Assembly: GCA_013151445.1 (NCBI GenBank)
Contig: JAADIG010000005.1
Location: 30,838-94,837, forward strand
DNA length: 64,000 nt
Direction of reading: 5' to 3'
DNA from: Actinomycetota bacterium
GTDB lineage: Bacteria; Actinomycetota; Acidimicrobiia; Spongiisociales; UBA5794
The translations under genes and the position numbers were made by a program. The notes below the pieces were generated by a model, which worked only from the letters and a program-made list of their open reading frames with translations, was not told where the DNA came from and did not search any database. Shown here piece by piece: positions 44,263-61,142 of the stretch; positions within the stretch are counted from its first letter, which is position 1; each line of letters opens with the position of its first letter.

Positions 44263-46311
<2,049 letters not shown>

Positions 46312-46313
46312 CC

Positions 46314-46328
46314 CGGCGAGTGTCGCCG
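46314..46328. terminator. Short hairpin between convergent ligA and RDD gene
   Basis: CGGCGA-gtg-TCGCCG, 3 nt after the ligA stop. Confidence 0.2.
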
Positions 46329-46332
46329 CCGA

Positions 46333-47160
46333 TCAACCCGGAATCTCATTCGATTCGTGATGAGCCAGTGGGCTGGGTCTTCCCCGGCGACGCTCGGAGC
46401 GTATCCCCCGTGATCGCTCGCTGGCGACGATCGCGGCAACGATGAGGTCATCACCTTTAACGCGGCGATGTTCCGTGAGCGCCGGTTGCAACAGTTCCGT
46501 GAGTTGACTCCGAACCGTGTTTCGAGCCGCCGAACTCAGCGTTGTTCGTCGGTTCACATACTCCTTTGCCACCCGGTAGCTGGCATCGGTCACCAGGGCC
46601 GAGTCGACGTGGCGCACGAGGCGCATCGCTCCCGACGTGACGATCGGGCGTTGGGGGCGCGGGAGCCGGACGACGACCGTACCCGCAACCGTGTCGCCGA
46701 GCCGTTGGTTCAGCGGTGACATCAGCATGGCCCAGAGGCCGATCGGCGGAAACATGTCGAGGAACCGCATGAGCGTACGGATCGTCGTTGCTTGTACCGT
46801 CGGGGGGCGCGCCTCCAGGGAAATTACTTGGAGGCTGCACAGCTTGCGACCGGGGGTCTGGCCCTCACGTTTGATGTCGAAGTACGCCCAGTAGCCGAAC
46901 AGAATGGCGATCGCGACCGAAGAAAGAACGACCAGCACGACGGTGCTGCCCCCACCAACAAAGAGTATCGACGCGAGCACGGCGAACACTGCGACCTCTA
47001 TCAGGTAGACCAGGCCGAGGTCGATCAAGGCAGCAATGAGCCGCGAGCCGACGCCCGCGATCTGGAGCGGGAACGTGAAGCCTTCGGGTGTCGTAACCGA
47101 GTGTGTAGTGTGCAACATGTGTCCGGGCCAACAGTACCTCCAACCATCACTGAAAACCAC
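46333..47160 (-). CDS. RDD-family membrane protein (start 47160 or internal ATG 47118)
   Basis: 'IAGVGSRLIAALIDLGLVYLI' and 'GQTPGRKLCSLQVI' are RDD (PF06271) hallmarks. C-terminal cytoplasmic tail. Confidence 0.6.
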   Translation of the reverse strand: MVFSDGWRYCWPGHMLHTTHSVTTPEGFTFPLQIAGVGSRLIAALIDLGLVYLIEVAVFAVLASILFVGGGSTVVLVVLSSVAIAILFGYWAYFDIKREGQTPGRKLCSLQVISLEARPPTVQATTIRTLMRFLDMFPPIGLWAMLMSPLNQRLGDTVAGTVVVRLPRPQRPIVTSGAMRLVRHVDSALVTDASYRVAKEYVNRRTTLSSAARNTVRSQLTELLQPALTEHRRVKGDDLIVAAIVASERSRGIRSERRRGRPSPLAHHESNEIPG

Positions 47161-48102
47161 GACAGTGTCGAGCGTGAGCTCATTGGTCGAGTCGAACGGG
47201 TCAAGGCGTCGCGCAAAGACAGCTTTGACAACGCCATCGAGATTGGCCGCCTCTACCGGGGCGTAACCGCCGAAGCCGCTGCGCTCGCGGATCCCAATTC
47301 GGGGGACTCCGACCGGCTCCGATCTGCCATCACCGAGGGTTACCGTTATGTGTACGGCGCACAGCCGTTCACCGACGGGTTCAAGACGTTTTTCGGGTCG
47401 ACGTTCTGGCTCGCCATTGCACGTCGGCGAAAGTTGATCAAATGGATCATGATCGCGCTCTTCGTATTTGCGGGACTCGGGGCCTTGTGGGCGGCTCTCG
47501 ACCCGAGCGCCGCAGCGACGCTCGTACCCGATATCTTCGGAAGCGCTCTCGACCCGGGTTCGACAGGAACGGCCACGCAGATGTCACCGGGTGAGCAAGT
47601 GCAGTTCGCACAGGAGCTGTTTGTCAACAATTTCCGGGTGACGTTGATGGCGTTTGTCGCGGGGATCGCTTTCGGTTTGCCATCGATATATCTGCTGGCG
47701 TACAACTCGGTGCTGCTCGGTGTGGTTGGCCAGCTCCTCGTGGCGCAGGGCGACGGAGCCTTCTTTCTCGAACTTGTTGCTGGCCACGGCCCCATCGAAC
47801 TCACGTCGATCGCGTTGGGAGTCGCCGCTGGATTTGCGATGGGTTGGGCACTCGTCGATCCCGGACTCAGGTCACGCGGTCAGGCTCTGCGTGAGGAGGC
47901 TTCGTATGCCATCGTGATAGCCGTTGGCACTGCACCGTGGTTGTTGCTCGCCGCAGTGATCGAGTCGTTTGTGTCACGAGTCGGACTATCTGCGGCACCG
48001 GTTGTGGCCGTCGGGTTGACGACCGTGGTCATCTTTTGGCGGCTGGTGTGGACCCGCGGGATCATACCCTTGCGCGATCTTTCAGATCTAAGTAGTGCTT
48101 GA
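47119..48102 (+). CDS. SpoIIM-like / DUF95 polytopic membrane protein (start uncertain)
   Basis: Cytoplasmic N-domain then 6 TM helices ('FRVTLMAFVAGIAFGLPSIYLLAYNSVLLGVVG'), typical of 'stage II sporulation protein M'-annotated actinobacterial proteins. The ORF-track start at 46792 overlaps the RDD gene; the GTG at 47119 was chosen instead. Confidence 0.5.
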   Translation: MSGPTVPPTITENHDSVERELIGRVERVKASRKDSFDNAIEIGRLYRGVTAEAAALADPNSGDSDRLRSAITEGYRYVYGAQPFTDGFKTFFGSTFWLAIARRRKLIKWIMIALFVFAGLGALWAALDPSAAATLVPDIFGSALDPGSTGTATQMSPGEQVQFAQELFVNNFRVTLMAFVAGIAFGLPSIYLLAYNSVLLGVVGQLLVAQGDGAFFLELVAGHGPIELTSIALGVAAGFAMGWALVDPGLRSRGQALREEASYAIVIAVGTAPWLLLAAVIESFVSRVGLSAAPVVAVGLTTVVIFWRLVWTRGIIPLRDLSDLSSA

Positions 48103-49300
48103 CACACGCGATCGGTAGGTCCGCGGCACGCAGCACAATCGGTTGGGCACCAAGATTCTTGAGCTGGTCAACGACTTCGAGCTGTTGGTTGAGTGCTTCG
48201 TGGGCAGCGACGCTGACGAACGCATCGAAGGTTGTCTCGGGATCGGTCAGCGTTGCATCCTCCAGCTCCGGGTCTATGGAAGACACGACGGCAACAGAGT
48301 GATGTCGAGCGAGAAGGGGCACCGCCCTCAGCAGAGCTTGTGAGGCGGCGGCGTCGAGGAGATCGGTGAAGATCAGCACAAAGGACCGCTTGGCTCTGAT
48401 TGCGATTTGGAGGGGTTCGTCGAACCGAGTGTTGTTGGTTGTGGGTTCGAGAGCGTGCAGTCCGCGCATCAGGGCCTCGCCACCGCGGCGACGGGGTGCG
48501 AGATGGTGGGTTAGCGACCGATCGAACGTCATGAATCCAACACGATCGCCAATGGTATCGGCGACATAGCCGACGGCGACTGCCGCGTCGATAGCGGCAT
48601 CCAGACGGGTCTTGCCACCGAGGTCGCCGCCCATCAGTCTGCCCTGGTCGATGAGACACAGTACGTTGCGGTCCTGTTCGAAGTTGAAGACGTTCGTCAT
48701 TGGCTGACCGGTGCGCAGCATGGCGCGCCAATTGATGTGGCGAAAGTCGTCGCCCGGCACGTATTCGCGAACCGAGTCGAAGGCGGTTCCGAGCCCGATG
48801 CGGCGGGTAACCCGCTCTCCTTGGCGCAGCGAGCCTCTCGCTACGGCATGCGCAATCCGACGTGCGGTGATGACGTCCGGGAATACGGTGATCGTCACTG
48901 CGGCCCGTGGCTGGTGGGTCCACGCACCCAGGCCCCAGCGTCCGAATGAACGCACAACAACCGACGGAAGTCGATGTGCGCCCCGTCGGGTCGCTACGAG
49001 CGTGAACGTGGTTGCTGAGGTAGGTCCCTGTGGGCGAACCGTAATGTCCGGAGTGCCGGGCTGGCGGAGCTGAAAGCGGTGCTGCGTCGCGACCGTGTAT
49101 TCGACCTTCGCTTCATACCCCCGGGCGAGGTGCTGCGGGATCTCCCCCGTGATGAGCGGGGGGTTGCGTACCTCGAGAGCGTCGACGACCGTGAGGGTTA
49201 TGACGAGGAGAACGGCGATACTCCCTGCGATCCCACCGAACGGGATCGCGAGGAGTGCGGCGCCAGCGGTCGCCAATGCGGATCGGGCTGTGGGCATCAC
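48062..49300 (-). CDS. DUF58-domain protein (vWA-like partner of MoxR ATPase)
   Basis: Two N-terminal TM helices, then a DUF58 core ('YVPGDDFRHINWRAMLRTGQPMTNVF', 'LIFTDLLDAAAS'). Start overlaps the moxR stop. Confidence 0.65.
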   Translation of the reverse strand: MMPTARSALATAGAALLAIPFGGIAGSIAVLLVITLTVVDALEVRNPPLITGEIPQHLARGYEAKVEYTVATQHRFQLRQPGTPDITVRPQGPTSATTFTLVATRRGAHRLPSVVVRSFGRWGLGAWTHQPRAAVTITVFPDVITARRIAHAVARGSLRQGERVTRRIGLGTAFDSVREYVPGDDFRHINWRAMLRTGQPMTNVFNFEQDRNVLCLIDQGRLMGGDLGGKTRLDAAIDAAVAVGYVADTIGDRVGFMTFDRSLTHHLAPRRRGGEALMRGLHALEPTTNNTRFDEPLQIAIRAKRSFVLIFTDLLDAAASQALLRAVPLLARHHSVAVVSSIDPELEDATLTDPETTFDAFVSVAAHEALNQQLEVVDQLKNLGAQPIVLRAADLPIACVKHYLDLKDRARV

Positions 49301-50226
49301 TTTGGGACGGGGACCTTGTCGAGGGTTTCGCTCACCGCGCTTGTCGCGCTGTATCGGTCTAGCTCGGCTTCGGGTCTGATAATTATTCGATGCGCGAGCA
49401 CGATGTTCGCCACGGCCTTGACGTCGTCGGGTGTCACGAAGTCCCGCCCGATTAGGCGTGCCGCGGCCTTGGCCGCCGCCAGCAGGTGGACGCCGGCACG
49501 CGGTGAGGCCCCGACCTCGACGTTTGCTAGCTGGCGAGAGAACCGCACGACCGACGCGACGTATTCGATCACCTCCGGCGAGACCCTGGTGTTTGCTACT
49601 GACGTGCGCATCGATGCGATGTCTTGCGAGGTCGCGACCGCCTTGACGTGGGAAACGGACGTGTCCTTCACGCCGCTGCGTGGCAGCGCGAGTAGGGCGC
49701 GCTCAGCTTCTTCGGACGGGTACGAAAGGACGAGCTTGAAGAGGAACCGATCAAGCTGTGCTTCGGGCAGGGGATAGGTGCCCTCGTACTCGATCGGGTT
49801 CTGTGTCGCTACTACGAGGAACGGATCGGGTAGCGGATGGCGTACACCGTCGACGGTGACATGCCCCTCCTGCATGCCTTCCAAGAGTGCACTCTGGGTC
49901 TTTGGGGGAGTTCGGTTGATCTCGTCGGCGAGTACAGCGTTGTGGAAAATCGGGCCCTTTCGGAACGAAAGCTTGGCACCGTCGAGTGCCAAGGTCCCGG
50001 TGATATCCGACGGCAACATGTCGGGGGTGAATTGGATTCGTCCAAAATCGAGTCCCAATGCTGCTGCGACGGTGCGGGCAACAAGTGTCTTCGCTACGCC
50101 CGGCGGTCCCTCGATGAGTACATGGCCTTCGACGCTCAGCGCCATCAGCAAGATATCGACCGTCGCCGACGCCTCGACAACGACCTGCTCAACTGCTTCG
50201 ATGACACGGGTACGTAGTTGGTTCAT
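49297..50226 (-). CDS. moxR: MoxR-family AAA+ ATPase
   Basis: Walker A 'GPPGVAKTLVARTVA', Walker B 'VLADEINRTPPKTQSALLEGMQE' and 'FLVVATQNPIEYEGTYPLPEAQLDRF' are diagnostic of the MoxR (MRP subfamily) ATPases. Confidence 0.9.
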   Translation of the reverse strand: MNQLRTRVIEAVEQVVVEASATVDILLMALSVEGHVLIEGPPGVAKTLVARTVAAALGLDFGRIQFTPDMLPSDITGTLALDGAKLSFRKGPIFHNAVLADEINRTPPKTQSALLEGMQEGHVTVDGVRHPLPDPFLVVATQNPIEYEGTYPLPEAQLDRFLFKLVLSYPSEEAERALLALPRSGVKDTSVSHVKAVATSQDIASMRTSVANTRVSPEVIEYVASVVRFSRQLANVEVGASPRAGVHLLAAAKAAARLIGRDFVTPDDVKAVANIVLAHRIIIRPEAELDRYSATSAVSETLDKVPVPK

Positions 50227-51356
50227 CCTCGGTCCTTCCTCATGGTTCTTTTTGATCTCAAAACTTGTGCGAGGGCTTGCGCAGTGGGGAGAAGTGGCGA
50301 AACCGAACTCAGGGCAAGGTTTATTTTCTGGTCCGGGACACCGGCCCGGCGCCCGGCCTCGCGCAGGTCGGCGGGATCGTTGCTTGCTGCTCGCCGTTGG
50401 AGTTCGCGCCGCAGCCGCATCCCAAGATAAGCGCCTGCGGGTCGGCGGGCATCTTCGATGCGTGCGAGGCGGGTTCCGAGCGCCGTTGCGTATTGAGATC
50501 GCGAAGGTTCAAGAGTGCGTTTGTTGCGCTCGATTGGTCCGAAGCGTGAGGTCGCCGACACGGCATACACGAATGCGGCGACACCGAGCAGCAGCAGCGT
50601 AGTTTTGATGTTCCGCGGGAGCGTTGCGAAACCGGTGGTTGGGCTCGGCGGTGTGACCGGTTCGTAGAAGAAAACCGGCTGGTCGGGTGCTCCGGCAACG
50701 AGTAGTGGGAGGCTGGCGTTATCAGCGTTGTACAGCCATCGGTTTGTGAGCAGGTCCGGATCTGCGAGGAACCAGGCAATTCCCTTCCCGATGGCGTCGG
50801 CGGCAACCGATGCACCGTCGGCGGTCACAACGACCGGGAGGGCGTCGCCAAGATCCGTGAACTGGCGGATGCCGGCTACGGGGCCACGGAGCATTGCGAG
50901 TTCGATACGTTCATCCAGCAGGCCATCAACTGTGACTTGAACCTGTGCCTGGACCGTCGTGGGTGAGGTTATCCGCGGTGCGACGGTGAGTGGTGGTGGT
51001 GCCCCAGCGAGGGCGAACACAACGTTGACGCCCGAACCGATGAGCTCCTCGAGTTGAGTTATCTCGGCGGCATCGAACGCGTGGATGCCGGCGATGAACA
51101 CCGTGGATCCCGGCGACACCGCAAGTGTGGATGTTGAAGGAAGGTCGGGTAGGCGGCGTATTGGGTGATCCTGTTCAAGGAGTGCATAAAGGTTGTCGAG
51201 CCCCGCGAGGGATGTGTCGTACGTTGACCACGGCACTGACTGTGTCGTTGGGGTCGGTGTTGGGGGGAAGAGTGTGATGTAGAGGCCCGCAAACAGTACG
51301 AAACCAACGGGAACCGTCCACACGACGTTCCAAAAGCCCTCCCGGCGGCGCTTCAT
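50223..51356 (-). CDS. DUF4350-domain protein (N-terminal TM anchor)
   Basis: TM 'VVWTVPVGFVLFAGLYITLF' then an extracytoplasmic domain resembling DUF4350. ATGA overlaps at both ends. Confidence 0.5.
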   Translation of the reverse strand: MKRRREGFWNVVWTVPVGFVLFAGLYITLFPPTPTPTTQSVPWSTYDTSLAGLDNLYALLEQDHPIRRLPDLPSTSTLAVSPGSTVFIAGIHAFDAAEITQLEELIGSGVNVVFALAGAPPPLTVAPRITSPTTVQAQVQVTVDGLLDERIELAMLRGPVAGIRQFTDLGDALPVVVTADGASVAADAIGKGIAWFLADPDLLTNRWLYNADNASLPLLVAGAPDQPVFFYEPVTPPSPTTGFATLPRNIKTTLLLLGVAAFVYAVSATSRFGPIERNKRTLEPSRSQYATALGTRLARIEDARRPAGAYLGMRLRRELQRRAASNDPADLREAGRRAGVPDQKINLALSSVSPLLPTAQALAQVLRSKRTMRKDRG

Positions 51357-52030
51357 GACGGATCCTCCGCAAGGATCTCGGCCCACACTTGTTCAAGATC
51401 GTCGGCCATGGTCTTGGTTGCTGGACGTTCGGCGTAGACAACGGTGTCGAAGTCCTGCGCAACCCGACTGGCGAGCGGATGACGGCTCGTTCGCCGAAGA
51501 GTGTCCGCGGTGGCTGTGGTGTGGTCGGTGATCTTTCCCCGCTCCTCCATTGCGGCGAGTCCCCATCGGAACCAGAGACGGACGGCGCTGGCGTAATCAC
51601 CGCCGTCTGCGGCCTCTTGCGCATCGTCGGCGTAGGTGCGGCGCTGCACATCCAGATTTGGGGCCGCGTCGGGCGACGCCCGTACGGCCGCCGGTTTCTT
51701 GCGGCCCTTGCGGGTCCGTACGAAGACGACCACAAGGGCGATACCGAGGGCGGCGATCAGGAAGTAGGCGAGGAACGTGCCATCGCCCGCCGCAGGCGGT
51801 CGTGCGGGAGACTCGAAGTTGTTGGGTTCTTGCTGGGTCGTTCCGGCAACATCGAGTCGAGTCAGCGTGTCGATGCGCTCCACGGCTGCCTCCGGGGATG
51901 CCTCTCCCAGGATCGTATCCATGTCTACCGAGCGACCGTCAACCTCCGTCACCGCCCGCAGTTGATCGAACGCGCCGGGGTCTGTCTGTGCGTTCTCGGC
52001 CAGGTCGACAAGTTCTTGGCTGGTAATCAT
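51353..52030 (-). CDS. DUF4129-domain protein (single TM, C-terminal DUF4129)
   Basis: TM 'FLAYFLIAALGIALVVVFV', then C-terminal 'AVRLWFRWGLAAMEERGKI...TADTLRRT' typical of DUF4129. Start set at ATG 52030, which forms an ATGA overlap with the upstream membrane gene's stop. Confidence 0.5.
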   Translation of the reverse strand: MITSQELVDLAENAQTDPGAFDQLRAVTEVDGRSVDMDTILGEASPEAAVERIDTLTRLDVAGTTQQEPNNFESPARPPAAGDGTFLAYFLIAALGIALVVVFVRTRKGRKKPAAVRASPDAAPNLDVQRRTYADDAQEAADGGDYASAVRLWFRWGLAAMEERGKITDHTTATADTLRRTSRHPLASRVAQDFDTVVYAERPATKTMADDLEQVWAEILAEDPS

Positions 52031-52842
52031 GGCGTCGGTGGGCTGGGTTGGGCGGCCGTCCGGGCCCTGTTGACTCTCTCCAGGAGGTCGAGGCCATCTC
52101 TTCTTGCGATACCGTCCGATACAAGCGATACCGAAATAGCGCCGATGGTTCCCAGTGCTGTTGACGCAACCAGGATGAAGACCGGAGCGATGATGGCCAG
52201 CACAGGAGTCGGTGGAGGATTCTCGGTGATCCATGCGAATGCCACACCGTAGGTCCCGACACCGAGACCGACGATCACGAGTGCGGTCACAAGGACGACC
52301 CAGAGGACCTTGAACACTCGACGGGTTGCGAGGTGGAACGACCGGGTCAGCGTTGCAACGTACCCCTTGTCCTCTCGGACGAGGATGCCAGGGATATGCA
52401 GCACGAGCGGGAGCGGTAGCAACAGGACCGTACCGACAGCCATCGTCGCGGCCAAGGACAAGTTCTTGATGGGGATTGCGAGGCCAAGGGTTCTGAATAG
52501 CTCTCGTGCTGAGCGGCGGCGACCGGTACGAACGTCTTCGGCGACGTATGCAGCCCCAATGATTTGGAAAGCAAACACGAGTGCAAGCAGCGAGAAGTCG
52601 ACGGCGTCAGGGTGCAGTCGTCCTGTTTGAACCGCCCCTTCGAGGTTGATACCTGTGGCTGGTCCGGACCAGTTACGGATGATTGCCACAATCGTGTACA
52701 CCGATCCGATCGCTAACGTCACTCGTGTCATCGTGCCTAGTGATCGACGCCATAGGGCGAATCCCACATCTATGACTTCACCGATTTCGAGCGGTCTATC
52801 CGGCGGCTGTTCCTGGGTCGTCCCTAACACGGCGCTCAGCAT
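52027..52842 (-). CDS. Hypothetical polytopic membrane protein (first gene of the MoxR-associated block)
   Basis: About 6 TM helices. Start set at 'MLSAVLG' (ATG 52842), 20 nt after the egtD stop. Confidence 0.45.
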   Translation of the reverse strand: MLSAVLGTTQEQPPDRPLEIGEVIDVGFALWRRSLGTMTRVTLAIGSVYTIVAIIRNWSGPATGINLEGAVQTGRLHPDAVDFSLLALVFAFQIIGAAYVAEDVRTGRRRSARELFRTLGLAIPIKNLSLAATMAVGTVLLLPLPLVLHIPGILVREDKGYVATLTRSFHLATRRVFKVLWVVLVTALVIVGLGVGTYGVAFAWITENPPPTPVLAIIAPVFILVASTALGTIGAISVSLVSDGIARRDGLDLLERVNRARTAAQPSPPTP

Positions 52843-52861
52843 ATCAGCGCCGCGCCTCGTT

Positions 52862-53893
52862 TCACTGGCGCGGCCGATGAAGCTTCCAGGGACGCTGCCG
52901 GGAGACAGGTTTGGGCTGCAGCAAAGCAACCGCAAATCTATCCTCGGTGTCGGTCCACCACCCACCGACGGACAGTCCCGCGGCGGATGCTTCGGCGACT
53001 ACGACGTCATACCGGAACTTGCAGGACACTTCGTCGTGGATTTCCTCGCCCTTTGCGAGGTGAATCGTGAGATCGAGGTCGGCGACTGTCACGTCCATGG
53101 CGCGGGTTGCTCGCAGTCCCATGGCGACACACTCGCTTGCAGCAACCCATTTCACGACGTACTCGAACTCATCGACTGGGAAGTTGGCGCCGAGTTCCCT
53201 GTTGAGAACGTGGAGGATGTTCTTGTTGAACTCTGCGGTAACACCAGCGCTGTCGTTGTATGCGGCTAGGAGCGTCTCGACATCCTTCACGAGATCAAGA
53301 CCTACGAGGAGGCCGTCAGCCGGTTCGAGTACGGCCCCGACCGAGCGATAGAACTCGACTCTCTCCTGGGACCGAAAATTCCCGATCGTCGACCCGAGGA
53401 ACGTCACGAGCCGGCGTCCGGAGTGTGGGATTTTCGGGAGATCCGAGGGGAAATCACCCACGAGACCTTCGATTGTCAGCCAGGGATAGTGTCCACTCAA
53501 AGTCTCTGCGGCGTCGCGAATCGCTGCCTCGGAGATATCGAACGGAACGTAGAGTGTTCCGGTCCCCGCCCGGCGGAGGGCCTCAAGCAACAATCGGGTT
53601 TTGACCGAGTATCCAGACCCGAGCTCGACGAGCTCCACGGGTTTGATCGCATCCATCATTTCGTCCGCATACAACGTGAGAATCTCCGCTTCGGCCCGGG
53701 TGAGGTAGTACTCCGGGAGTCGGGTGATGTCTTCAAACAGCTCCGACCCGCGGGCGTCGTAGAAGTATTTTGACGAGAGTTGTTTTGGTGTTCCGATCAA
53801 CCCCTGGCGAGTATCCGCGGCGAGTTCAGCACCGACGTTCGACGGAGGTGACAGCCTCCGGATCGAGGGTGCAGTTTCAAGCTGTCCAGTCAT
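52862..53893 (-). CDS. egtD: L-histidine N-alpha-methyltransferase (ergothioneine biosynthesis)
   Basis: '[34 protein letters not shown]', '[14 protein letters not shown]' SAM-binding and 'FLGSTIGNF' EgtD motifs. Start at ATG 53893 forms an ATGA overlap with the egtC stop. Confidence 0.85.
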   Translation of the reverse strand: [343 protein letters not shown]

Positions 53894-54660
53894 AGCCCCT
53901 CCAGCGGGTGCGTGGTGATTCCCTGTGATGTGAGATGGACGAGGTGATGCTCCGGGACCGGCTCCCAAGCTCGCAGGTCGTCCAACGGTTCCGAGACCAC
54001 CCACGATCCGGTCGATTGTTGAACGGTATATAAACTATTCAGCGGGGCATTCACGGAGTGGCGCACCGCAACTATGCCGGTTCCGTCACCTACGACGAGA
54101 TTCATTGTTGCGTCAGAGCCGTTCTCGGCGACAAGCCCGCCGACGAAGTTCAGTGCTTCGGTCGTGGCGTCAACGAGGTTTCCCTCATAACGATCGACGA
54201 CGGTGAGGAAGATGGCCAGTGAATCGTTGATGGTATGCAGTTGCTCATAGGTGTCCGCGGAGAGTGAGCTCAACAGGCTACGTCCCAGAGCACCACGGAA
54301 CCCCGTGATGCGGCCATTGTGTACCGCGGCCAAATCACCAACAACAAATGGTGCAACGTTTGCTGGACCGATCGCAATGCCGGCACTCGCCGAGCGAACC
54401 GCTGCGATCAGCATTCCGGAGGTGAGACGTTCCGAGAGAGCGGGCAGGTTGGCATCCTGCCAGGGTGCGAGCGGTGTGACGTAGCGCAGTGGTGTGCGGT
54501 CCCCACCGTCCCACCAGGCCACCCCCGTTCCGTCGACGTTGACGGAGCCATGGATCTGCTCGCGCGGCTGATACGCCTGTTTCTCAAGCGAGTGAGGCGC
54601 TCGGTAGAGTGCCTCGGCGAGCGGAATCGCATCCCCAACATACGCAGCTAGACGGCACAT
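53890..54660 (-). CDS. egtC: Gamma-glutamyl-hercynylcysteine sulfoxide hydrolase (class II glutamine-amidotransferase fold)
   Basis: Begins 'MCRLAAYVGD' (Ntn-hydrolase Cys2 nucleophile), ~256 aa, positioned between egtB and egtD. The ORF-track start at 55497 was rejected (overlaps egtB). Confidence 0.8.
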   Translation of the reverse strand: MCRLAAYVGDAIPLAEALYRAPHSLEKQAYQPREQIHGSVNVDGTGVAWWDGGDRTPLRYVTPLAPWQDANLPALSERLTSGMLIAAVRSASAGIAIGPANVAPFVVGDLAAVHNGRITGFRGALGRSLLSSLSADTYEQLHTINDSLAIFLTVVDRYEGNLVDATTEALNFVGGLVAENGSDATMNLVVGDGTGIVAVRHSVNAPLNSLYTVQQSTGSWVVSEPLDDLRAWEPVPEHHLVHLTSQGITTHPLEGL

Positions 54661-54661
54661 C

Positions 54662-55999
54662 TCAGATGTCCCAGGCCAATCTGATACCGGCGAAGATCTG
54701 ACGGCGGATTGGGTAGTCCCAGTTGCGGAACGTTGTGCGTGCCGTCGACTTCGATGTCGCCCACGACGCTCCCCGCAACACCCTGTAGTCCTCACCGAAG
54801 AACACTTCGGAGTACTCCGGGTACGGAAACATCGTGTAGCCGGGGTACGGCTCGAAGAACGACGTCGTCCACTCATATCCATCGCCCAGCATCTGTTCGA
54901 CACCGTATGCGCTCGCCCCGGCCGGATAACTTCCGACTGGAGCCGGACCCCAGCCACGATGGCCAAGGTTGGCGTGGTCGGTCGTCGGCGCAGTCTCGCC
55001 CCATGGATAACTTCGTGTGGTTGCTGTCTCCGGGTCCCATGCCGCGGCCTTTTCCCACTCGACCTCCGTTGGAAGGCGTGCACCGAGGGAGCGGGCGAAC
55101 GCCTCCGCTTCGTGAAAGCTGACGTGCTCGACCGGTTCGGCAGGATCGAGAGAGGTGATGTGGCCAAAGCGCCGTACGAGCCATCCGCCGTCGAGATCGG
55201 GAATCCAGCCCTGGGGTGCCGCATGGCCCTGCTCGGTGATCCAATCCCAACCATCTGCGGTCCAAAGTTCCTGACGTTGATAGCCCCCTGCCCGAACGAA
55301 TTCGCTGTAACGAGCAACGGTAACCGGGAATTTGTCGATGGCGAACGTGTCGACGTTGATCGCATGGGCGGGGCGTTCGTTGTCGTACGTGTGTGTGCGG
55401 TCGTCCGTTCCGAGGCTGAACGTTCCACCGGGAATTGTGACCCGGGCGGCGTCGTCCACGGCGTCGGTACGGCGCGGCAGGCGTCGTGGAGTGGCAATCA
55501 CATAGGGGGCCAGATCGTCGCGCAGGTCCAGTGCTTGAAGCACCGTCTCTTGATGTTGAGCCTCGTGCTGGGCAACCATCGACCACACGAACCCGTTCGC
55601 CAGCAGGGGTGTGTCTGGATCTAGATCTGTGTGCCGGAGAAGGTCCAGTGCTTCGCCGCGCACATTGTCCATATATGTGGCGGCTTCGCGGCGATCGAGA
55701 ATGGGCAGATCCGCCCGCACCCACCGCGGGTTGTCAAAAGGGTTGTAGAGACCATCAAGGTCGGGGTCGTGGGCCGCACGTCCATCGAGTTCGCGAAGTA
55801 GCCAGTATTCCTCGAAGTTGGCTACGTGTCCCATATCCCAAACAATCGGGGACATGAGTGAATTGAACTGTCGGTGGAGGTCATCGTCGGTGAGGGCATC
55901 GGTCATCTGGAACGTGCGACTCCGGATGGTGGAGAGCATCGATTCGAGGTCTGTCCGGCGTGCGGCGTGCGCGGCCCCCCGGTTCGGGGCGGCAGTCAT
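54662..55999 (-). CDS. egtB: Hercynine oxygenase / sulfoxide synthase (DinB_2 + FGE-sulfatase domains)
   Basis: 'SPIVWDMGHVANFEEYWLL' iron-binding DinB_2 motif and the C-terminal FGE-like domain ('GGSWATS', 'RNWDYP'). The egtC start codon follows 2 nt after the stop. Confidence 0.85.
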   Translation of the reverse strand: MTAAPNRGAAHAARRTDLESMLSTIRSRTFQMTDALTDDDLHRQFNSLMSPIVWDMGHVANFEEYWLLRELDGRAAHDPDLDGLYNPFDNPRWVRADLPILDRREAATYMDNVRGEALDLLRHTDLDPDTPLLANGFVWSMVAQHEAQHQETVLQALDLRDDLAPYVIATPRRLPRRTDAVDDAARVTIPGGTFSLGTDDRTHTYDNERPAHAINVDTFAIDKFPVTVARYSEFVRAGGYQRQELWTADGWDWITEQGHAAPQGWIPDLDGGWLVRRFGHITSLDPAEPVEHVSFHEAEAFARSLGARLPTEVEWEKAAAWDPETATTRSYPWGETAPTTDHANLGHRGWGPAPVGSYPAGASAYGVEQMLGDGYEWTTSFFEPYPGYTMFPYPEYSEVFFGEDYRVLRGASWATSKSTARTTFRNWDYPIRRQIFAGIRLAWDI

Positions 56000-56054
56000 C
56001 TGGTGGGCCTTCCTTGGTGGGTTAATGCGAGTACCAACATAGCGATTCGCTGAG

Positions 56055-57488
56055 CTATTCCTGTATGGGGACGGCGTTCGCCTGGGGAACTCGCATATCG
56101 ACCAGTTTGTCCGGGTTCATGATCCCGAGGGGATCGAGGGCACCCTTGATCAATCGCATGAGGTCGAGTTCCTCAGCTGCGACGACATCGGCGAAACGGC
56201 GCATCTTCTTTTGGCCGAGACCATGTTCGGCGCTGATTGTGCCGCCGAGATCCAGGGCGGTTGTTTCGATCACGCGCATGATGTCGGACCCGTACCCTGC
56301 GAACTCCTGTGGCTCCATGGAATCGGGCCGTACGACGTTGTAGTGGATGTTGCCATCCCCGACGTGGCCGAAGGTAACGATCTCGGCATCGGGGAGCAAG
56401 GCCCGGACACCCGCATCGGTGACCGTAACGAATTCGGCAACCGCACCGACGGCGACCCCGGTGTCTCCCTTGATACACGTCGGATCTTCAATCAACGCGG
56501 CAGGGATGCCCTCCCGGATTTCCCACAGGGTCCTTTCCTGCTGATCATCAGCTGCAATCACAGCATCCTCGACAACCCCGTCCGCATTGGCTTGTGCAAG
56601 CACATCCAGCAGGGTCTCTTCGAGGGGTATCCGGTCCGACGTTGCGGTCACAACGACGAGTATGTGCCACTCATGAGATCCGGCGAGTGGTGCCCGACGC
56701 CCGTTGAGGTAACGTTCGACGGCGTTGCGGTTCATGAGCTCAAAGGTTGACAGGAACTCATCGAGCTCGGTACGGCATCGGCTGAGAAGATCGACTGCGG
56801 CTGCACACGAGGCCACGCCGATCCAGGCGGTCCTTTGGAGTTTTGGCGCAGGGAACAAGCGGAGCTTTGCTGCGGTGATGATGCCGAGTGTTCCCTCGGC
56901 GCCAAGAAACAGCTGTTTCAGGTCGTAGCCGGTGTTGTCCTTGGGGAGACGATTAAGTCCGTTCCATACGGCACCGTTCGCCAAAACGACTTCCAGGCCG
57001 AGCACCAGATTACGAGCCATGCCGTATCGGATGACGTTGGTCCCTCCCGCGTTGGTGCTGAGATTGCCACCAACTTGGCTACTCAATCCGGCATGTCGAA
57101 GCGGAAACAGTCGGTTGTTGTTCGAAGCTAGCTCTTGGAGCTCCACGAGTAGATAACCAGCCTCGACCGTCACTGTGTTTGATACCAAGTCGATATCGCG
57201 CACTGTGCGCATCTTTTCCAGGGACACTACGACACTCTGTTCATCATCCACCGGTACGGCCCCGCCGACGAGGCCACTGTTGCCGCCGCGAGGAACGATG
57301 CTGACTTCGGCTGCCGCGCACGAACGCACAATCTCGACGAGTTCACTCGTCGTTCGGGGACGCATGACGGCCAACGGAACACCGTGATAGTTCTTGGTGG
57401 CATCCGCCGCATACTGCTCGTTGTCCGCCACTGGCAACGGGCCGTCACCGATGCCACCGAGGGTCACTAACAAGGCATTGCTGGGCAT
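56055..57488 (-). CDS. FAD-linked oxidase (GlcD / D-lactate dehydrogenase-like, FAD_binding_4 + FAD-oxidase_C)
   Basis: 'VSIVPRGGNSGLVGGAVP' FAD-binding motif and C-terminal 'SAEHGLGQKKM'. Start set at 'MPSNALLV' (ATG 57488). The upstream 69-aa extension was judged non-coding. Confidence 0.8.
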   Translation of the reverse strand: MPSNALLVTLGGIGDGPLPVADNEQYAADATKNYHGVPLAVMRPRTTSELVEIVRSCAAAEVSIVPRGGNSGLVGGAVPVDDEQSVVVSLEKMRTVRDIDLVSNTVTVEAGYLLVELQELASNNNRLFPLRHAGLSSQVGGNLSTNAGGTNVIRYGMARNLVLGLEVVLANGAVWNGLNRLPKDNTGYDLKQLFLGAEGTLGIITAAKLRLFPAPKLQRTAWIGVASCAAAVDLLSRCRTELDEFLSTFELMNRNAVERYLNGRRAPLAGSHEWHILVVVTATSDRIPLEETLLDVLAQANADGVVEDAVIAADDQQERTLWEIREGIPAALIEDPTCIKGDTGVAVGAVAEFVTVTDAGVRALLPDAEIVTFGHVGDGNIHYNVVRPDSMEPQEFAGYGSDIMRVIETTALDLGGTISAEHGLGQKKMRRFADVVAAEELDLMRLIKGALDPLGIMNPDKLVDMRVPQANAVPIQE

Positions 57489-57529
57489 GGGATCTCTCTC
57501 CGTTTGCTGCTCTCGCTGGCAGCCGTCTC

Positions 57530-58654
57530 CTATGGTTGGGGTCGAGCTGAGAATACGACCTGAAGGCGTGCTTCGTCGCGTACTGAGACGAAACCCCTCA
57601 TACTCGGTGGGCTGAAGCCAAAGTCGGTAATCGCGATGTTCGTGGTGCCGAGGATTTGGAGGGCACCATCGGCGATGCGACCTTCGATATCCCACACCAC
57701 CTCACGGCTTGTGCCCATGATTGTCAGCTCCCCGGTGATCGACGTCGTGAAGGTTTCGCCAGTAACGATTCCGGGTGGTACCTCGAATCCACTCGTCGTG
57801 AATACTGCGTTGGGATTCGAAGTGAACAGCCGGGCGACGTTACGGTCGCGTCGGCTTTGGTCCGAACGGAAGGACGTGAGGTCGATGGTGATCTCGGAGA
57901 TACCATCGAGATCGATCGTTCCGCCCAGCGTATCGGTGCGTCCAACTGCGACAGTTTCGAGGTTATTGGAGAGGAACACCTCGGGGACGGTATAGGTTGC
58001 TTCACCGTCACGAATGGAGAACGTCCGTGCTGTGAGCGGATCGATCGCCGTCTGTGCGTTGGGAGAATCCGTGTTGAGATCGTCGAGGGCGAGGTTGCCC
58101 GACTCGACATCGATGACACCCTGGAATCCCACACCCACGGCGAGGGCAACGACGGGTAAGGCAATGAGGGCGCCTTGGGGCACCGACACCGATCCCAGGC
58201 CCGTCAACATATACGCTGTTCCAAAGAAGATGATGCCGGCCAGGGGCGCCCCGAATGTGATCATGTTGTCAAGAAACGCAACCTGGACCGCGACCAGCCC
58301 CACCAACACAATCAGAAACCCGACTCCCATGGCGCGCCAAAGGTCCTTGTGCGCCCGTTGCTGAGCCTCTTCCGCCTGGCGGCGAGTCCGTTCGGCGTCG
58401 CGTTTGGCTCTCGTTCCCGAACGTTTCTTTCGCAACGTGTTCGGTTTGTTCTGTTCCGCGAGCATCTTGCTAGTGATTCGGTCGTTGAGCAAAGCACCAA
58501 TAACACCGATGATCAGGGCCCCGATGACAACAGTGAGGGTGTTCATCAGGATCGGATCCGGGGATCGCAGGGGAATGGATAGCGCCGCAGCCACCAGGCC
58601 GGTTGTTGCCCCGATAGCGAGGCCTCGAAGGACTGGCTGGGTGTTCGTTGACAT
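57530..58654 (-). CDS. Membrane-anchored YceI-like domain protein
   Basis: Two N-terminal TM helices, a Lys/Arg/Glu-rich coiled segment, another TM, and a C-terminal β-rich YceI-like domain ('ISEITIDLTSFRSDQSRRDRNV', 'TGELTIMGTSREV'). Start at 'MSTNTQPVLRG' (ATG 58654). Confidence 0.55.
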   Translation of the reverse strand: MSTNTQPVLRGLAIGATTGLVAAALSIPLRSPDPILMNTLTVVIGALIIGVIGALLNDRITSKMLAEQNKPNTLRKKRSGTRAKRDAERTRRQAEEAQQRAHKDLWRAMGVGFLIVLVGLVAVQVAFLDNMITFGAPLAGIIFFGTAYMLTGLGSVSVPQGALIALPVVALAVGVGFQGVIDVESGNLALDDLNTDSPNAQTAIDPLTARTFSIRDGEATYTVPEVFLSNNLETVAVGRTDTLGGTIDLDGISEITIDLTSFRSDQSRRDRNVARLFTSNPNAVFTTSGFEVPPGIVTGETFTTSITGELTIMGTSREVVWDIEGRIADGALQILGTTNIAITDFGFSPPSMRGFVSVRDEARLQVVFSARPQP

Positions 58655-58670
58655 GGGTTCCTTCCGCACC

Positions 58671-58683
58671 GGACACGGTGTCC
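58671..58683. promoter_or_regulatory. 13-bp perfect palindrome GGACACGGTGTCC just upstream of the YceI-like gene's RBS
   Basis: GGACAC-G-GTGTCC lies 17-29 nt upstream of the start codon and is followed by GGAAGG. Could be an operator site. Confidence 0.25.
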
Positions 58684-58769
58684 ATCCGTGATGATCGGGC
58701 CAGTATGGCCGAATGCCGTGACTTAGTTTGCGGATCCGACCCAGCGCCGTTGCGTGGGTGCTGTGTGGG

Positions 58770-61142
58770 CTATCTGATCTCGCGTGCGAAGAGGTCAATT
58801 GTGTCTTTGAGCTGTGGCTCACGTTCGTAATTGCTGTGCGACTCGTAGGGGAACAGAGGTGCGAGGGCTTCGAGGACACGAATATCGGCTTCCGGGTCCG
58901 GTGGTGACAATGTGCCGCCGGGTGCTACAAACACCTTCCGGCCGATGTAGTCGGTCGGGCGCCACAGGTTGCGCCACGCTTGGGTACCGGTTGAGCGAAG
59001 AGTGGCGAGCCGGTCTCTGAGTGCATCGAAGAGGCCGGGGGTGCCAAAGTTTTCGGGGAAGAACCGGCCGTAAAGAGTGCTGAGTGGGGACCCGAACGTG
59101 ACGAGGCCGACCCTGGTCAGCGATTCTGCGGGCAACCTTTGGGAGGGTCCGGCAATGGCTGCGTAACTGTTGGGCTCGATGGTGTCGGTACCGTCGGTGG
59201 TGGGACCTACGGTGTTCGGCAGGTTGAATCCGACCTGTTCGCGTTCGGCAGCTATCTGGACCAGGGCAGCGAACGCAATGACGGTTCCCTGTGAATGTGC
59301 AGACACGATCACCGACTTTCCCGCAAGGAGGTGATGTCGGACGCGATCCCGGAACTCTGGAACTGCTCGCTCGGCATAACAGGGTGCTGCAAGAGGATGG
59401 AAACGACGTGGCCAAAAGCTCAGCACATCCCAAACCTTGCCGAGCTGACGGCGGCTGGCACGAGATTGTGCGTTCTTCCGAATCAACTGGACGCCCGGGA
59501 ACACGTAAAGGACAATGATGACTGCTGCCGCGGGGTGAAGAAAGCTCAGTCCCTCGATTCCCAGTAGAGGAGCGGCAAAGGCGCCGTCTGGTCCTGCGGA
59601 CACGTTGAACCCACCGATCCACCCCTGAACGAACGTCGTGATGAGCAGAATGGTTACAAGAAGCAGAATCAGCCCGTCTCCACGCGATGGAAGTTTTGCG
59701 AGGACCCGGGCTTTCGCCACCGCCCGGACCCATGCACTCTCCCGATCTGAGAGCGTATTGCGCCGATCGAAGTAGTCCGCGCGGACCGCGGCGGAAGGTT
59801 TTGTCGAGAGGCGCAGGTACAGGAGCAGCGTGATCGCGCTGAGGATCATCGAAACGATGAGGATATCGATGAGTACGATGTCAAAGCCGTTGTCGGCAAC
59901 CCACTGTGCCCCTCGTAATGCCCTTCCGAGTACATGAGCGATGGCGACGAACCCTGCTCCCGCGATCGTGATCGAAAGACCCGCGGCGAGTGCGGGAAAC
60001 AACCACAGCCAGCCACCGAGATTGGCGTGGTCATCGAGTAGGAACCGGCGGTAGAACATCAGGCCGAGGGTGAGTACACCGACAATGTAGAACACCATCG
60101 ACAGCCCCCGGATCGCATCGAGGTACCCCAGCGGTGTCGTGATCGTGTTGTCGATGAGACCGCTGGCGAGCGTGACGAGACCGTAGCCAGATATCCCGAG
60201 GAGAACATGGGTACCCGTCCACGCTGCCTGTCGTCTTGTGTCTTGCACCGCGGTGTGATTCCGGTCGCCAGCATCACGGAATCTTTCGGGGCCGCTGAGC
60301 CACCAGAGGGCCACCACGACTGCGAGCATCACCGCGGAGATCGCAAACTGGGCACCTAGCGGTGGGGTGACCCATCCCATACGGGCGACAGCATGTCCGG
60401 CCGCCGCCCCAAGCAACAGCATCGTCAGCCCCAGGTGCCACCGAAACAGCCTCCGATGTTCCTCCCACCGGTACCAGAAGCCCTGGTTCTCCAGCGTCGT
60501 ATTACGACGCAGTCGGCTCGTGTCCGAGCGGCCTTGGTCCATCGAGCCTATGGCTCTGCGGGCCGGGTCCGCCTCGTATCCTTCAAGCTGATCCTGGCTG
60601 CGGAGGATGAACAGGAAAAGTCCGAGGATCAAAAATGCCGCAAGACCGATGCCGACGGTCACCAGCCAGACGGGGTTGGATCCGAACCATCCCACGGGTC
60701 CGACGTACCAACGACTCGAACACTCTGTCGTTGCTGCGCAACCGAAGGCAACGATTTCGGTCGTAAGCGTCGCAGTCCACATGACGTACACGGCCGTGAT
60801 TGCCAACCCGCCGAGTACTACTAGCAGCCGCCCCCACCACAGGCTCGATCGGACCCTCTCGTCGGGTGTGCCGCGTTCGTCGGCCGTGGGCTGGAACATC
60901 CATCCCGCCACGTTCATCAGGGTGAACGGAAGCAGTATCCACCACACTGCCGTGCTCGATGCGCCCGATGTGAGCCGACCCCATTCGTACGCTTCGATAT
61001 CCCGATCATCAGATGGGGGTACGTCAGGTTTGTAGAAACCCGCCGTTCGATCTCCCGCCGTTTGGGTAACGGGACCCCCGAGGATCTCCTGTGCGGTCGC
61101 ACCACCGACACCGCGGATCTCCAGCTGCACCGTTTGTGGCAT
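58770..61142 (-). CDS. Large polytopic membrane protein with C-terminal lipase/esterase-like alpha/beta-hydrolase domain
   Basis: The N-terminal ~560 aa contain at least 12 hydrophobic helices. The C-terminal ~230 aa carry the classic lipase pentapeptide 'GHSQG' in 'VIVSAHSQGTVIAF' plus 'VTFGSPL'. Confidence 0.55.
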   Translation of the reverse strand: MPQTVQLEIRGVGGATAQEILGGPVTQTAGDRTAGFYKPDVPPSDDRDIEAYEWGRLTSGASSTAVWWILLPFTLMNVAGWMFQPTADERGTPDERVRSSLWWGRLLVVLGGLAITAVYVMWTATLTTEIVAFGCAATTECSSRWYVGPVGWFGSNPVWLVTVGIGLAAFLILGLFLFILRSQDQLEGYEADPARRAIGSMDQGRSDTSRLRRNTTLENQGFWYRWEEHRRLFRWHLGLTMLLLGAAAGHAVARMGWVTPPLGAQFAISAVMLAVVVALWWLSGPERFRDAGDRNHTAVQDTRRQAAWTGTHVLLGISGYGLVTLASGLIDNTITTPLGYLDAIRGLSMVFYIVGVLTLGLMFYRRFLLDDHANLGGWLWLFPALAAGLSITIAGAGFVAIAHVLGRALRGAQWVADNGFDIVLIDILIVSMILSAITLLLYLRLSTKPSAAVRADYFDRRNTLSDRESAWVRAVAKARVLAKLPSRGDGLILLLVTILLITTFVQGWIGGFNVSAGPDGAFAAPLLGIEGLSFLHPAAAVIIVLYVFPGVQLIRKNAQSRASRRQLGKVWDVLSFWPRRFHPLAAPCYAERAVPEFRDRVRHHLLAGKSVIVSAHSQGTVIAFAALVQIAAEREQVGFNLPNTVGPTTDGTDTIEPNSYAAIAGPSQRLPAESLTRVGLVTFGSPLSTLYGRFFPENFGTPGLFDALRDRLATLRSTGTQAWRNLWRPTDYIGRKVFVAPGGTLSPPDPEADIRVLEALAPLFPYESHSNYEREPQLKDTIDLFAREIR

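Follow-up and report, generated by a model that had tools for sequence, protein, structure and literature searches.

In the mycobacterial-type ergothioneine route, the middle steps are carried out by EgtD, which trimethylates histidine, EgtB, which couples gamma-glutamylcysteine to hercynine, and EgtC, which cleaves off glutamate. The corresponding genes lie within the egtA-egtB-egtC-egtD-egtE operon of Mycobacterium tuberculosis (Rv3704c-Rv3700c; PMC6154287) and M. smegmatis (MSMEG_6250-6246). Close to the M. tuberculosis egt genes lies the moxR2 locus (Rv3689-Rv3695), a seven-gene cassette whose members have been annotated in mycobacteria as a membrane protein (Rv3689), DUF4350 (Rv3691), MoxR (Rv3692), DUF58 (Rv3693), SpoIIM (Rv3694c) and RDD (Rv3695) proteins (PMC8191103); that table covers six of the seven genes, and Rv3690, the one left out, is assigned here to DUF4129 by its position. 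Most actinomycetes, M. tuberculosis included, have kept the cassette, which is without an assigned role. Here we analyze a stretch of 64,000 nucleotides from an Actinomycetota bacterium (assembly GCA_013151445.1, contig JAADIG010000005.1; hereafter the window), in which egtB, egtC and egtD run directly into a diverged version of this cassette, in an arrangement that, on the sequences compared, appears to be lineage-specific and confined to one shallow clade from hydrothermal vents.

Several described systems resemble the cassette in part. MoxR ATPases are chaperones that work with VWA partners, and MoxR1 assists the export of RipA (PMC12067865). Pairs of this kind (RavA-ViaA, M. tuberculosis MoxR1 and the MRP subfamily with DUF58) share with the window an AAA_3 ATPase gene that overlaps a DUF58/VWA gene, and differ from it in that the metal ion-dependent adhesion site (MIDAS) of the VWA domain is replaced throughout this cassette family by DxGRLM. 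The DUF4350 (arCOG01314)-MoxR-vWA system of Makarova et al. 2015, predicted to form a secretion or membrane-remodelling complex, likewise combines MoxR and vWA proteins with a membrane-anchored DUF4350 protein carrying a GldG-like extracellular domain, and SpoIIM homologues have been noted beside vWA genes and COG0714 ATPases (PMC5898192). Its archaeal version adds Ig-like S-layer proteins, whereas the actinobacterial cassette has GPDPase_memb-like, DUF4129 and RDD partners. The co-purification of Rv3694c and Rv3695 with the divisome protein Rv0954 (PMC8093794) and the MoxR1-RipA export link are weak hints pointing to the envelope. In an RNA-seq table for M. chelonae, used here for orthologue mapping only, the cassette drops along with glpK, glpF and a padR-family gene (PMC8191103); this joint drop may be a regional event, and the table lists no egt gene. 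The SigF-regulated MoxR/DUF58 operon of M. smegmatis (MSMEG_6606-6612) was set aside, as it did not appear to correspond to the cassette.

In the window, egtB, egtC, egtD and the genes encoding a membrane protein, a DUF4129-like protein, a DUF4350 protein, MoxR and a DUF58 protein constitute eight consecutive open reading frames (ORFs) on the minus strand, within positions 46333-55999. As the initial annotation of this DNA had claimed, the run from egtB to the DUF58 gene is tightly packed, its seven junctions comprising five 4-nt stop/start overlaps, one 1-nt gap and one 19-nt gap. A single nucleotide separates egtB (54662-55999) from egtC (53890-54660) in the sequence TGAgATG, egtC and egtD (52862-53893) overlap through ATGA, and the 19-nt gap (52843..52861, minus strand) lies between egtD and the membrane protein gene (52027-52842). 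Further ATGA overlaps join the membrane protein gene to the DUF4129-like gene (51353-52030), the latter to the DUF4350 gene (50223-51356) and this in turn to moxR (49297-50226), which overlaps the DUF58 gene (48062-49300) through GTGA, or through TGATG if the ATG at 49297 is the start. The remaining same-strand gaps in the stretch measure 41-166 nt, and the run of overlaps is hence not a genome-wide packing effect. GC content at third codon positions (GC3) is even over the egt and cassette genes (0.65-0.74); horizontal transfer of the egt block was considered, and this composition gives it no support.

The three egt products could be assigned with NCBIfam and Pfam models. EgtB presents both the DinB_2 and FGE-sulfatase domains and passes the TIGR03440 equivalog (393.8 bits against a cut-off of 360), while EgtD matches Methyltransf_33 with 351.5 bits and passes TIGR03438 (338.4 bits against 290.9). 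On this basis, egtB is predicted to encode the hercynine/gamma-glutamylcysteine sulfoxide synthase and egtD the L-histidine N-alpha-methyltransferase. EgtC scores 206.3 bits against the TIGR03442 cut-off of 218.65, 12 bits short, in a match that spans profile positions 1-250 of 251, and shows a weak GATase_4 match in Pfam. It starts with Met-Cys, which provides the N-terminal nucleophile expected of a class-II (Ntn) glutamine amidohydrolase, and the position of its gene between egtB and egtD is kept in relatives. All three hence appear to be bona fide or near-bona fide family members. EgtB contains no cysteines, and the clade-specific, basic C-terminal tail of EgtD, PWKLHRPR(Q/N/H), is conserved directly before the 19-nt gap (52862-52900); EgtD proteins of the next identity tier, at 328-333 aa, fall about 10-13 residues short of the 343 aa seen here.

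The window shares with the mycobacterial egt operon the EgtB and EgtD families, the B-C-D gene order and overlapping or abutting junctions, and its probable EgtC would point to the route by way of gamma-glutamylcysteine. Unlike that operon, the window yielded neither egtA nor an Aminotran_5 (EgtE-class) homologue: tblastn searches of the whole 64 kb gave no match better than E = 0.2, whether with an EgtA probe that itself scores 370.7 bits against the TIGR03444 cut-off of 370.8 or with an Aminotran_5 probe that is a weak EgtE stand-in (TIGR04343, 37 bits against 400). The EgtA and EgtE functions would have to be encoded elsewhere in the genome. The window also departs from the mycobacterial operon in the EgtC score below cut-off, in the EgtD tail and in running directly into an unrelated cassette.

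Among the cassette proteins of the window, those encoded by moxR and its two flanking genes were readily identified. The DUF4350 protein matches PF14258 above cut-off and has a GldG/GIFT-like fold. Its AlphaFold2 model (mean predicted local distance difference test score, pLDDT, of 81.6) places an alpha/beta domain between two transmembrane helices, the first of them N-terminal, and ends in a long helical tail, and is compatible with an extracytoplasmic GIFT/class-I-GATase-like domain lacking the catalytic cysteine and followed by a cytoplasmic tail. MoxR matches AAA_3 (198.9 bits) and AAA_lid_2 (71.1 bits), with intact Walker A (GPPGVAKT) and Walker B (LADE) motifs, and its gene is adjoined by that of a DUF58/VWA protein with an N-terminal hydrophobic hairpin (DUF58, 78.7 bits against 23.4; VWA_2, 33.5 against 27). 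The MIDAS position of the latter reads DQGRLM (48640-48660, residues ~218-223) instead of DxSxS, and DxGRLM replaces DxSxS in the DUF58 proteins of all the canonical cassette loci inspected. The usual metal-dependent VWA binding may therefore not apply to this DUF58 subfamily, in which metal is probably not bound as in other VWA domains. The membrane protein, the DUF4129-like protein, the DUF4350 protein and MoxR (49297-52842) contain no cysteines.

The two proteins encoded 5' of the DUF4350 gene are more diverged, and fall below Pfam thresholds in the window. The 225-aa protein does not show a significant DUF4129 match by Pfam directly (E = 9.1), whereas hhalign aligns it with bona fide DUF4129 neighbours of DUF4350, which score 31.9-37 bits in Pfam against a cut-off of 24.8, at 98.3% probability (E = 1.8e-14); it is predicted to consist of a single transmembrane segment and a diverged C-terminal DUF4129 domain. 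The 271-aa membrane protein has at least four hydrophobic segments and no Pfam match. In canonical loci, the two genes 5' of DUF4350 encode a protein passing the DUF4129 threshold and a polytopic protein matching GPDPase_memb (PF10110), and the window protein aligns with these canonical upstream membrane proteins over 221 columns (hhalign, 95.9% probability, E = 6.3e-9). It is hence best regarded as a diverged GPDPase_memb-like relative, encoded by the first gene of the cassette in the position of Rv3689. The initial annotation had called the egt, DUF4129, DUF4350, MoxR, DUF58, SpoIIM and RDD families from the letters alone; Pfam and NCBIfam bear out its assignments of EgtB, EgtD, DUF4350, MoxR, DUF58, SpoIIM and RDD, the DUF4129 assignment holds by profile-profile alignment and not by Pfam directly, and the polytopic membrane protein that it had noted proves to be the product of a diverged gene that opens the conserved cassette, not of an extra gene.

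The cassette is completed by an SpoIIM-like polytopic membrane protein encoded on the plus strand (~47101/47119-48102; Pfam SpoIIM, 114 bits), with GTG start candidates at 47101, 47110 or 47119 and a gene position conserved in all canonical loci, and by an RDD-family membrane protein on the minus strand (46333-47118; Pfam RDD, 68.5 bits), both adjoining the MoxR block as first proposed. The RDD gene is uncalled in the public annotation of the metagenome-assembled genomes (MAGs) that carry this locus, where the SpoIIM-like ORF has been stretched to 436 aa over the 5' part of RDD; the Pfam score and conserved position indicate that the RDD gene is real. The DUF58 and SpoIIM-like genes converge and share 41 nt at their 3' ends (48062-48102), so that an intervening terminator would have no space. 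The SpoIIM-like gene and RDD diverge head-to-head from start codons that directly adjoin each other (CAT|GTG at 47116-47121), and the projected 5' ends of the pair abut or overlap in 29/29 unrelated cassette loci (-45 to +10 nt). The lack of intergenic DNA in this pair suggests leaderless transcripts or promoters located inside the coding sequence of the partner.

To place the window cassette among others, metagenome contigs were scanned with DUF4350 as anchor, using a six-sequence alignment and the motif RGRR[LF]GPPE, which returned 80 loci. In every one of these with enough flank, DUF4129, DUF4350, MoxR and DUF58 are encoded on one strand, followed by the SpoIIM-like gene on the opposite strand and then by RDD. 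The gene families, order and orientation of the window match those of the loci with enough flank and of Rv3689-Rv3695 and its Actinomycetota orthologues across all seven families, with the two diverged members tied in by hhalign. The window copies differ from Rv3689-Rv3695 in being very diverged. The 4-nt overlaps within the cassette are found in unrelated loci as well: a start at -4 is available at the moxR/DUF58 junction in 37 of 44 unrelated loci, and at the DUF4350/moxR junction in 24 of 57, with a -1 start in nine more. These overlaps are, by such comparison, ancestral to the cassette.

Since the membrane protein is encoded by the first gene of the cassette, the 19-nt gap after egtD marks the exact seam between the egt unit and the cassette. 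This seam was found in a clade of hydrothermal-vent Actinomycetota whose membrane proteins are at least 74% and EgtD proteins at least 82% identical to those of the window, and it measures exactly 19 nt in every member. The clade includes the window's own species (GCA_054033715.1, GCA_024280255.1 and two Logan assemblies), GCA_006240795.1 (EgtD 85% identical), JGI 3300085088 (EgtD 82% identical), ENA ERZ1742236 (membrane protein 77% identical) and the Logan assembly SRR25425414 (membrane protein 74% identical). Copies of the window proteins that agree at every residue are found in Actinomycetota MAGs and in hydrothermal-vent metagenome records. Within the seam, the ends are conserved (TGAAA... 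and ...CTGATATG) and the middle is variable. A GAGG motif is present in the window and absent from the relatives, and no Shine-Dalgarno motif is common to clade members. The lineage is sparsely sampled. Homologues at least 74% identical to the window DUF4350 and membrane proteins amount to a handful (four matches each in word-based searches), and a HMMER scan of 1.84 billion representatives returned a nearest DUF4350 outside the clade at 34% identity, with no sampled lineage bridging the distance from the vent clade to the canonical cassettes.

The adjacency of egt genes and cassette was then surveyed from both sides. A genome scan with EgtD on the species genomes of GTDB gave 80 egtD loci among the matches listed, in which cassette genes were sought at E <= 1e-3; none was detected downstream of egtD in the 57 diverse loci with at least 5 kb of downstream sequence, nor upstream in the 62 with at least 5 kb on that side. 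Conversely, egtB, egtC and egtD were absent upstream of all 30 metagenome cassette loci with more than 3 kb of upstream sequence. The initial annotation had made conservation of the adjacency in related genomes a test of its reading, and the adjacency is missing from these two broad surveys and from all four of the next-tier egtD loci (EgtD 61-64% identical), where egtD is followed by a Ser/Thr kinase gene, a convergent gene, or cupin, MFS and YjeF_N genes. The upstream neighbour of the cassette elsewhere is variable, encoding an acyl-CoA dehydrogenase, an HD/OB protein, Fic, an M32 carboxypeptidase or a divergently oriented HD protein, and same-strand neighbours can be equally close (~41 nt for the acyl-CoA dehydrogenase, ~12 nt for the HD/OB protein). 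The initial annotation had described the two loci as neighbouring and separate in mycobacteria, and in M. tuberculosis the coordinates of Rv3689-Rv3695 and Rv3700c-Rv3704c agree with that description: the units are four genes apart on opposite strands, and it is the RDD end of the cassette that faces the egt genes, whereas in the window they are joined to its membrane-protein end. No description of the fused arrangement was found in the literature searched.

Two observations were made on the more distant egt loci. In next-tier relatives, the ~5 kb after egtBCD contain MFS and YjeF_N genes and, on the opposite strand, an Aminotran_5 gene, whose product resembles EgtE weakly (37 bits with TIGR04343, where the cut-off is 400) and might serve as another C-S lyase. 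Of the GTDB species matches listed, the nearest EgtD (64% identical) lies on CAXMPE010000129.1, from a MAG labelled Verrucomicrobiales that carries egtB-egtC-egtD in the actinobacterial order, which could reflect mis-binning or horizontal transfer. This contig ends inside egtD and is therefore uninformative on the seam.

Several features of the seam bear on transcription across it. A consensus scan, which models actinobacterial promoters poorly, detected no terminator-like or sigma-70-like promoter site in it, and promoter- and terminator-like sites over 45500-58000 were no commoner than in shuffled sequence. The seam contains no hairpin conserved among relatives; an 11-bp hairpin around the start codon of the membrane protein gene in the window (z = -1.86) was dropped as a regulatory element because relatives do not keep it. 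Rfam and tRNA scans of the whole window returned no match, and no riboswitch or leader RNA was identified before egtB or at the seam. Given the conserved spacer length, the lack of terminator- or promoter-like sites and the lack of a conserved hairpin, a single transcript from egtB to the DUF58 gene is a plausible and reasonable expectation. Since the spacer holds no shared Shine-Dalgarno motif, the first cassette gene probably relies for its translation on ribosomes that come from egtD, and the fixed seam length and the absence of GAGG in relatives would fit re-initiation from egtD better than an independent ribosome-binding site.

Taken as a whole, we consider it probable that the locus joins, within one narrow vent lineage, two ordinary units that are each conserved in their own right, a rearrangement that has become fixed and that would bring about co-expression, probably without a functional link between ergothioneine and the cassette. 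The first unit, egtB-egtC-egtD, would supply the middle ergothioneine steps, and the second would be the seven-gene actinobacterial cassette. The neighbourhood was found nowhere else among the sampled loci and hence seems to reflect a chance event in local gene order and to offer no hint of function. Each component is an ordinary member of a known family, and the fused arrangement is a lineage-specific variant.

Several points weigh against this reading. The seam length is kept to the nucleotide down to ~74% protein identity, which is compatible with selection for co-expression. The proximity of egt genes and cassette in M. tuberculosis is a second and differently arranged instance, and could be more than coincidence. 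The motif RGRR[LF]GPPE is typical of high-GC soil actinomycetes and is absent from the window's own DUF4350 protein, so that the cassette sample is biased towards canonical high-GC actinomycetes, and the EgtD genome sample did not recover the window's own species, making it a broad sample and not a nearest-neighbour survey. Finally, a promoter within the 3' end of egtD is possible on the sequence.

The first two of these points feed the alternative that fares best, namely that the fusion is adaptive and either places the cassette and ergothioneine in one stress regulon, protecting the envelope against oxidants or metals at vents, or lets the cassette handle ergothioneine or a thiol-dependent client. 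The exact seam length shared by all clade members and the independent nearness of the two units in M. tuberculosis speak for it, and MoxR/DUF58 operons, such as the Bat aerotolerance operon of Bacteroides, have been tied to oxidative stress. We nonetheless regard an adaptive fusion as unlikely. The surveys from either side returned no joint occurrence (0/57 downstream and 0/62 upstream of egtD among the matches listed, and 0/30 cassette loci), the arrangement is missing from the nearest egtD relatives beyond the clade, and the genes found upstream of the cassette elsewhere are unrelated housekeeping genes. Furthermore, the membrane, DUF4129-like, DUF4350 and MoxR proteins are free of cysteines, the DUF4350 fold lacks the GATase nucleophile, and no link between ergothioneine and MoxR was found in the literature searched. 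The restriction of the adjacency to one clade, the variable upstream neighbour and the four cysteine-free proteins likewise count against the step taken in the initial annotation, from adjacency to a thiol-linked or envelope-stress role, and leave its interpretation, overall, partly supported. In its broadest form, in which the cassette would be functionally tied to the protection of the envelope by low-molecular-weight thiols, with the vent fusion and the mycobacterial proximity as two independent traces of that tie, we judge the proposal improbable; the exact seam conservation and the independent mycobacterial proximity keep the thiol/envelope idea alive, somewhere between improbable and unlikely.

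A second alternative is that the units are adjacent and transcribed separately, with the cassette driven by a promoter that lies within the egtD 3' end or the spacer, and the neighbourhood devoid of regulatory meaning. The seam is indeed the sole junction from egtC to the DUF58 gene other than a 4-nt overlap, its middle is not conserved and its GAGG is particular to the window, while embedded promoters are apparently used within the cassette itself, at the head-to-head SpoIIM-like/RDD pair. Against separate transcription stand the result of the promoter scan, which is a poor model of actinobacterial promoters, a spacer of 19 nt that is far below the nearby same-strand gaps of 41-166 nt, and the combination of fixed spacer length with no shared Shine-Dalgarno motif, which fits re-initiation from egtD; we consider this alternative quite unlikely. 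The last alternative, an assembly or binning artefact joining unrelated contigs, draws on the fact that all sources are metagenome assemblies and has a negligible probability, because the same junction, with sequence divergence, in at least eight independent assemblies (NCBI, JGI, ENA and Logan) rules out a chimeric contig, and composition is even across the seam.

Under the favoured reading of two separate units fixed end to end, the five same-strand genes of the cassette would have lost their separate upstream region in the vent clade and would most likely be carried on the egt transcript, driven by the egt promoter or by another that lies upstream of it. The first cassette gene would be translated by ribosomes arriving from egtD, 19 nt upstream. 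The cassette itself would form a membrane-embedded complex, in which the cytoplasmic MoxR AAA+ chaperone and its DUF58 VWA-type partner could assemble or remodel the membrane subunits, and DUF4350 would display a non-catalytic GIFT-like domain, possibly glycan-binding, outside the cell.

Upstream of egtB, the 55-nt spacer (56000..56054, minus strand) presents a Shine-Dalgarno-like run, AAGGAAGG, 8 nt before the ATG, and is a possible promoter region; the consensus scan, with the same poor model of actinobacterial promoters, found no consensus promoter in it. Further 5' on the same strand (56055-61142) are genes encoding a FAD-linked oxidase (GlcD-like), a YceI-domain protein and a 790-aa protein without Pfam match. 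A gene for a 133-aa protein is also located upstream on the strand of egtB, and the gaps among these upstream genes are of 41-166 nt. In the relative with 85% identity the YceI gene is missing and the remaining synteny is kept.

The analysis ties the diverged membrane and DUF4129-like proteins to the canonical cassette, recovers an RDD gene missed by annotation, and documents two peculiarities of the cassette, the head-to-head starts of the SpoIIM-like and RDD genes and the DxGRLM sequence at the VWA MIDAS site. It also advises caution, in that shared function cannot be read from tight stop/start packing at a seam if the neighbourhood occurs in a single shallow clade only. If the thiol link were true, ergothioneine phenotypes would be the first experimental handle on the cassette, and if the co-expression proved functional, it would provide a first hint to the role of this seven-gene membrane/AAA+ cassette.

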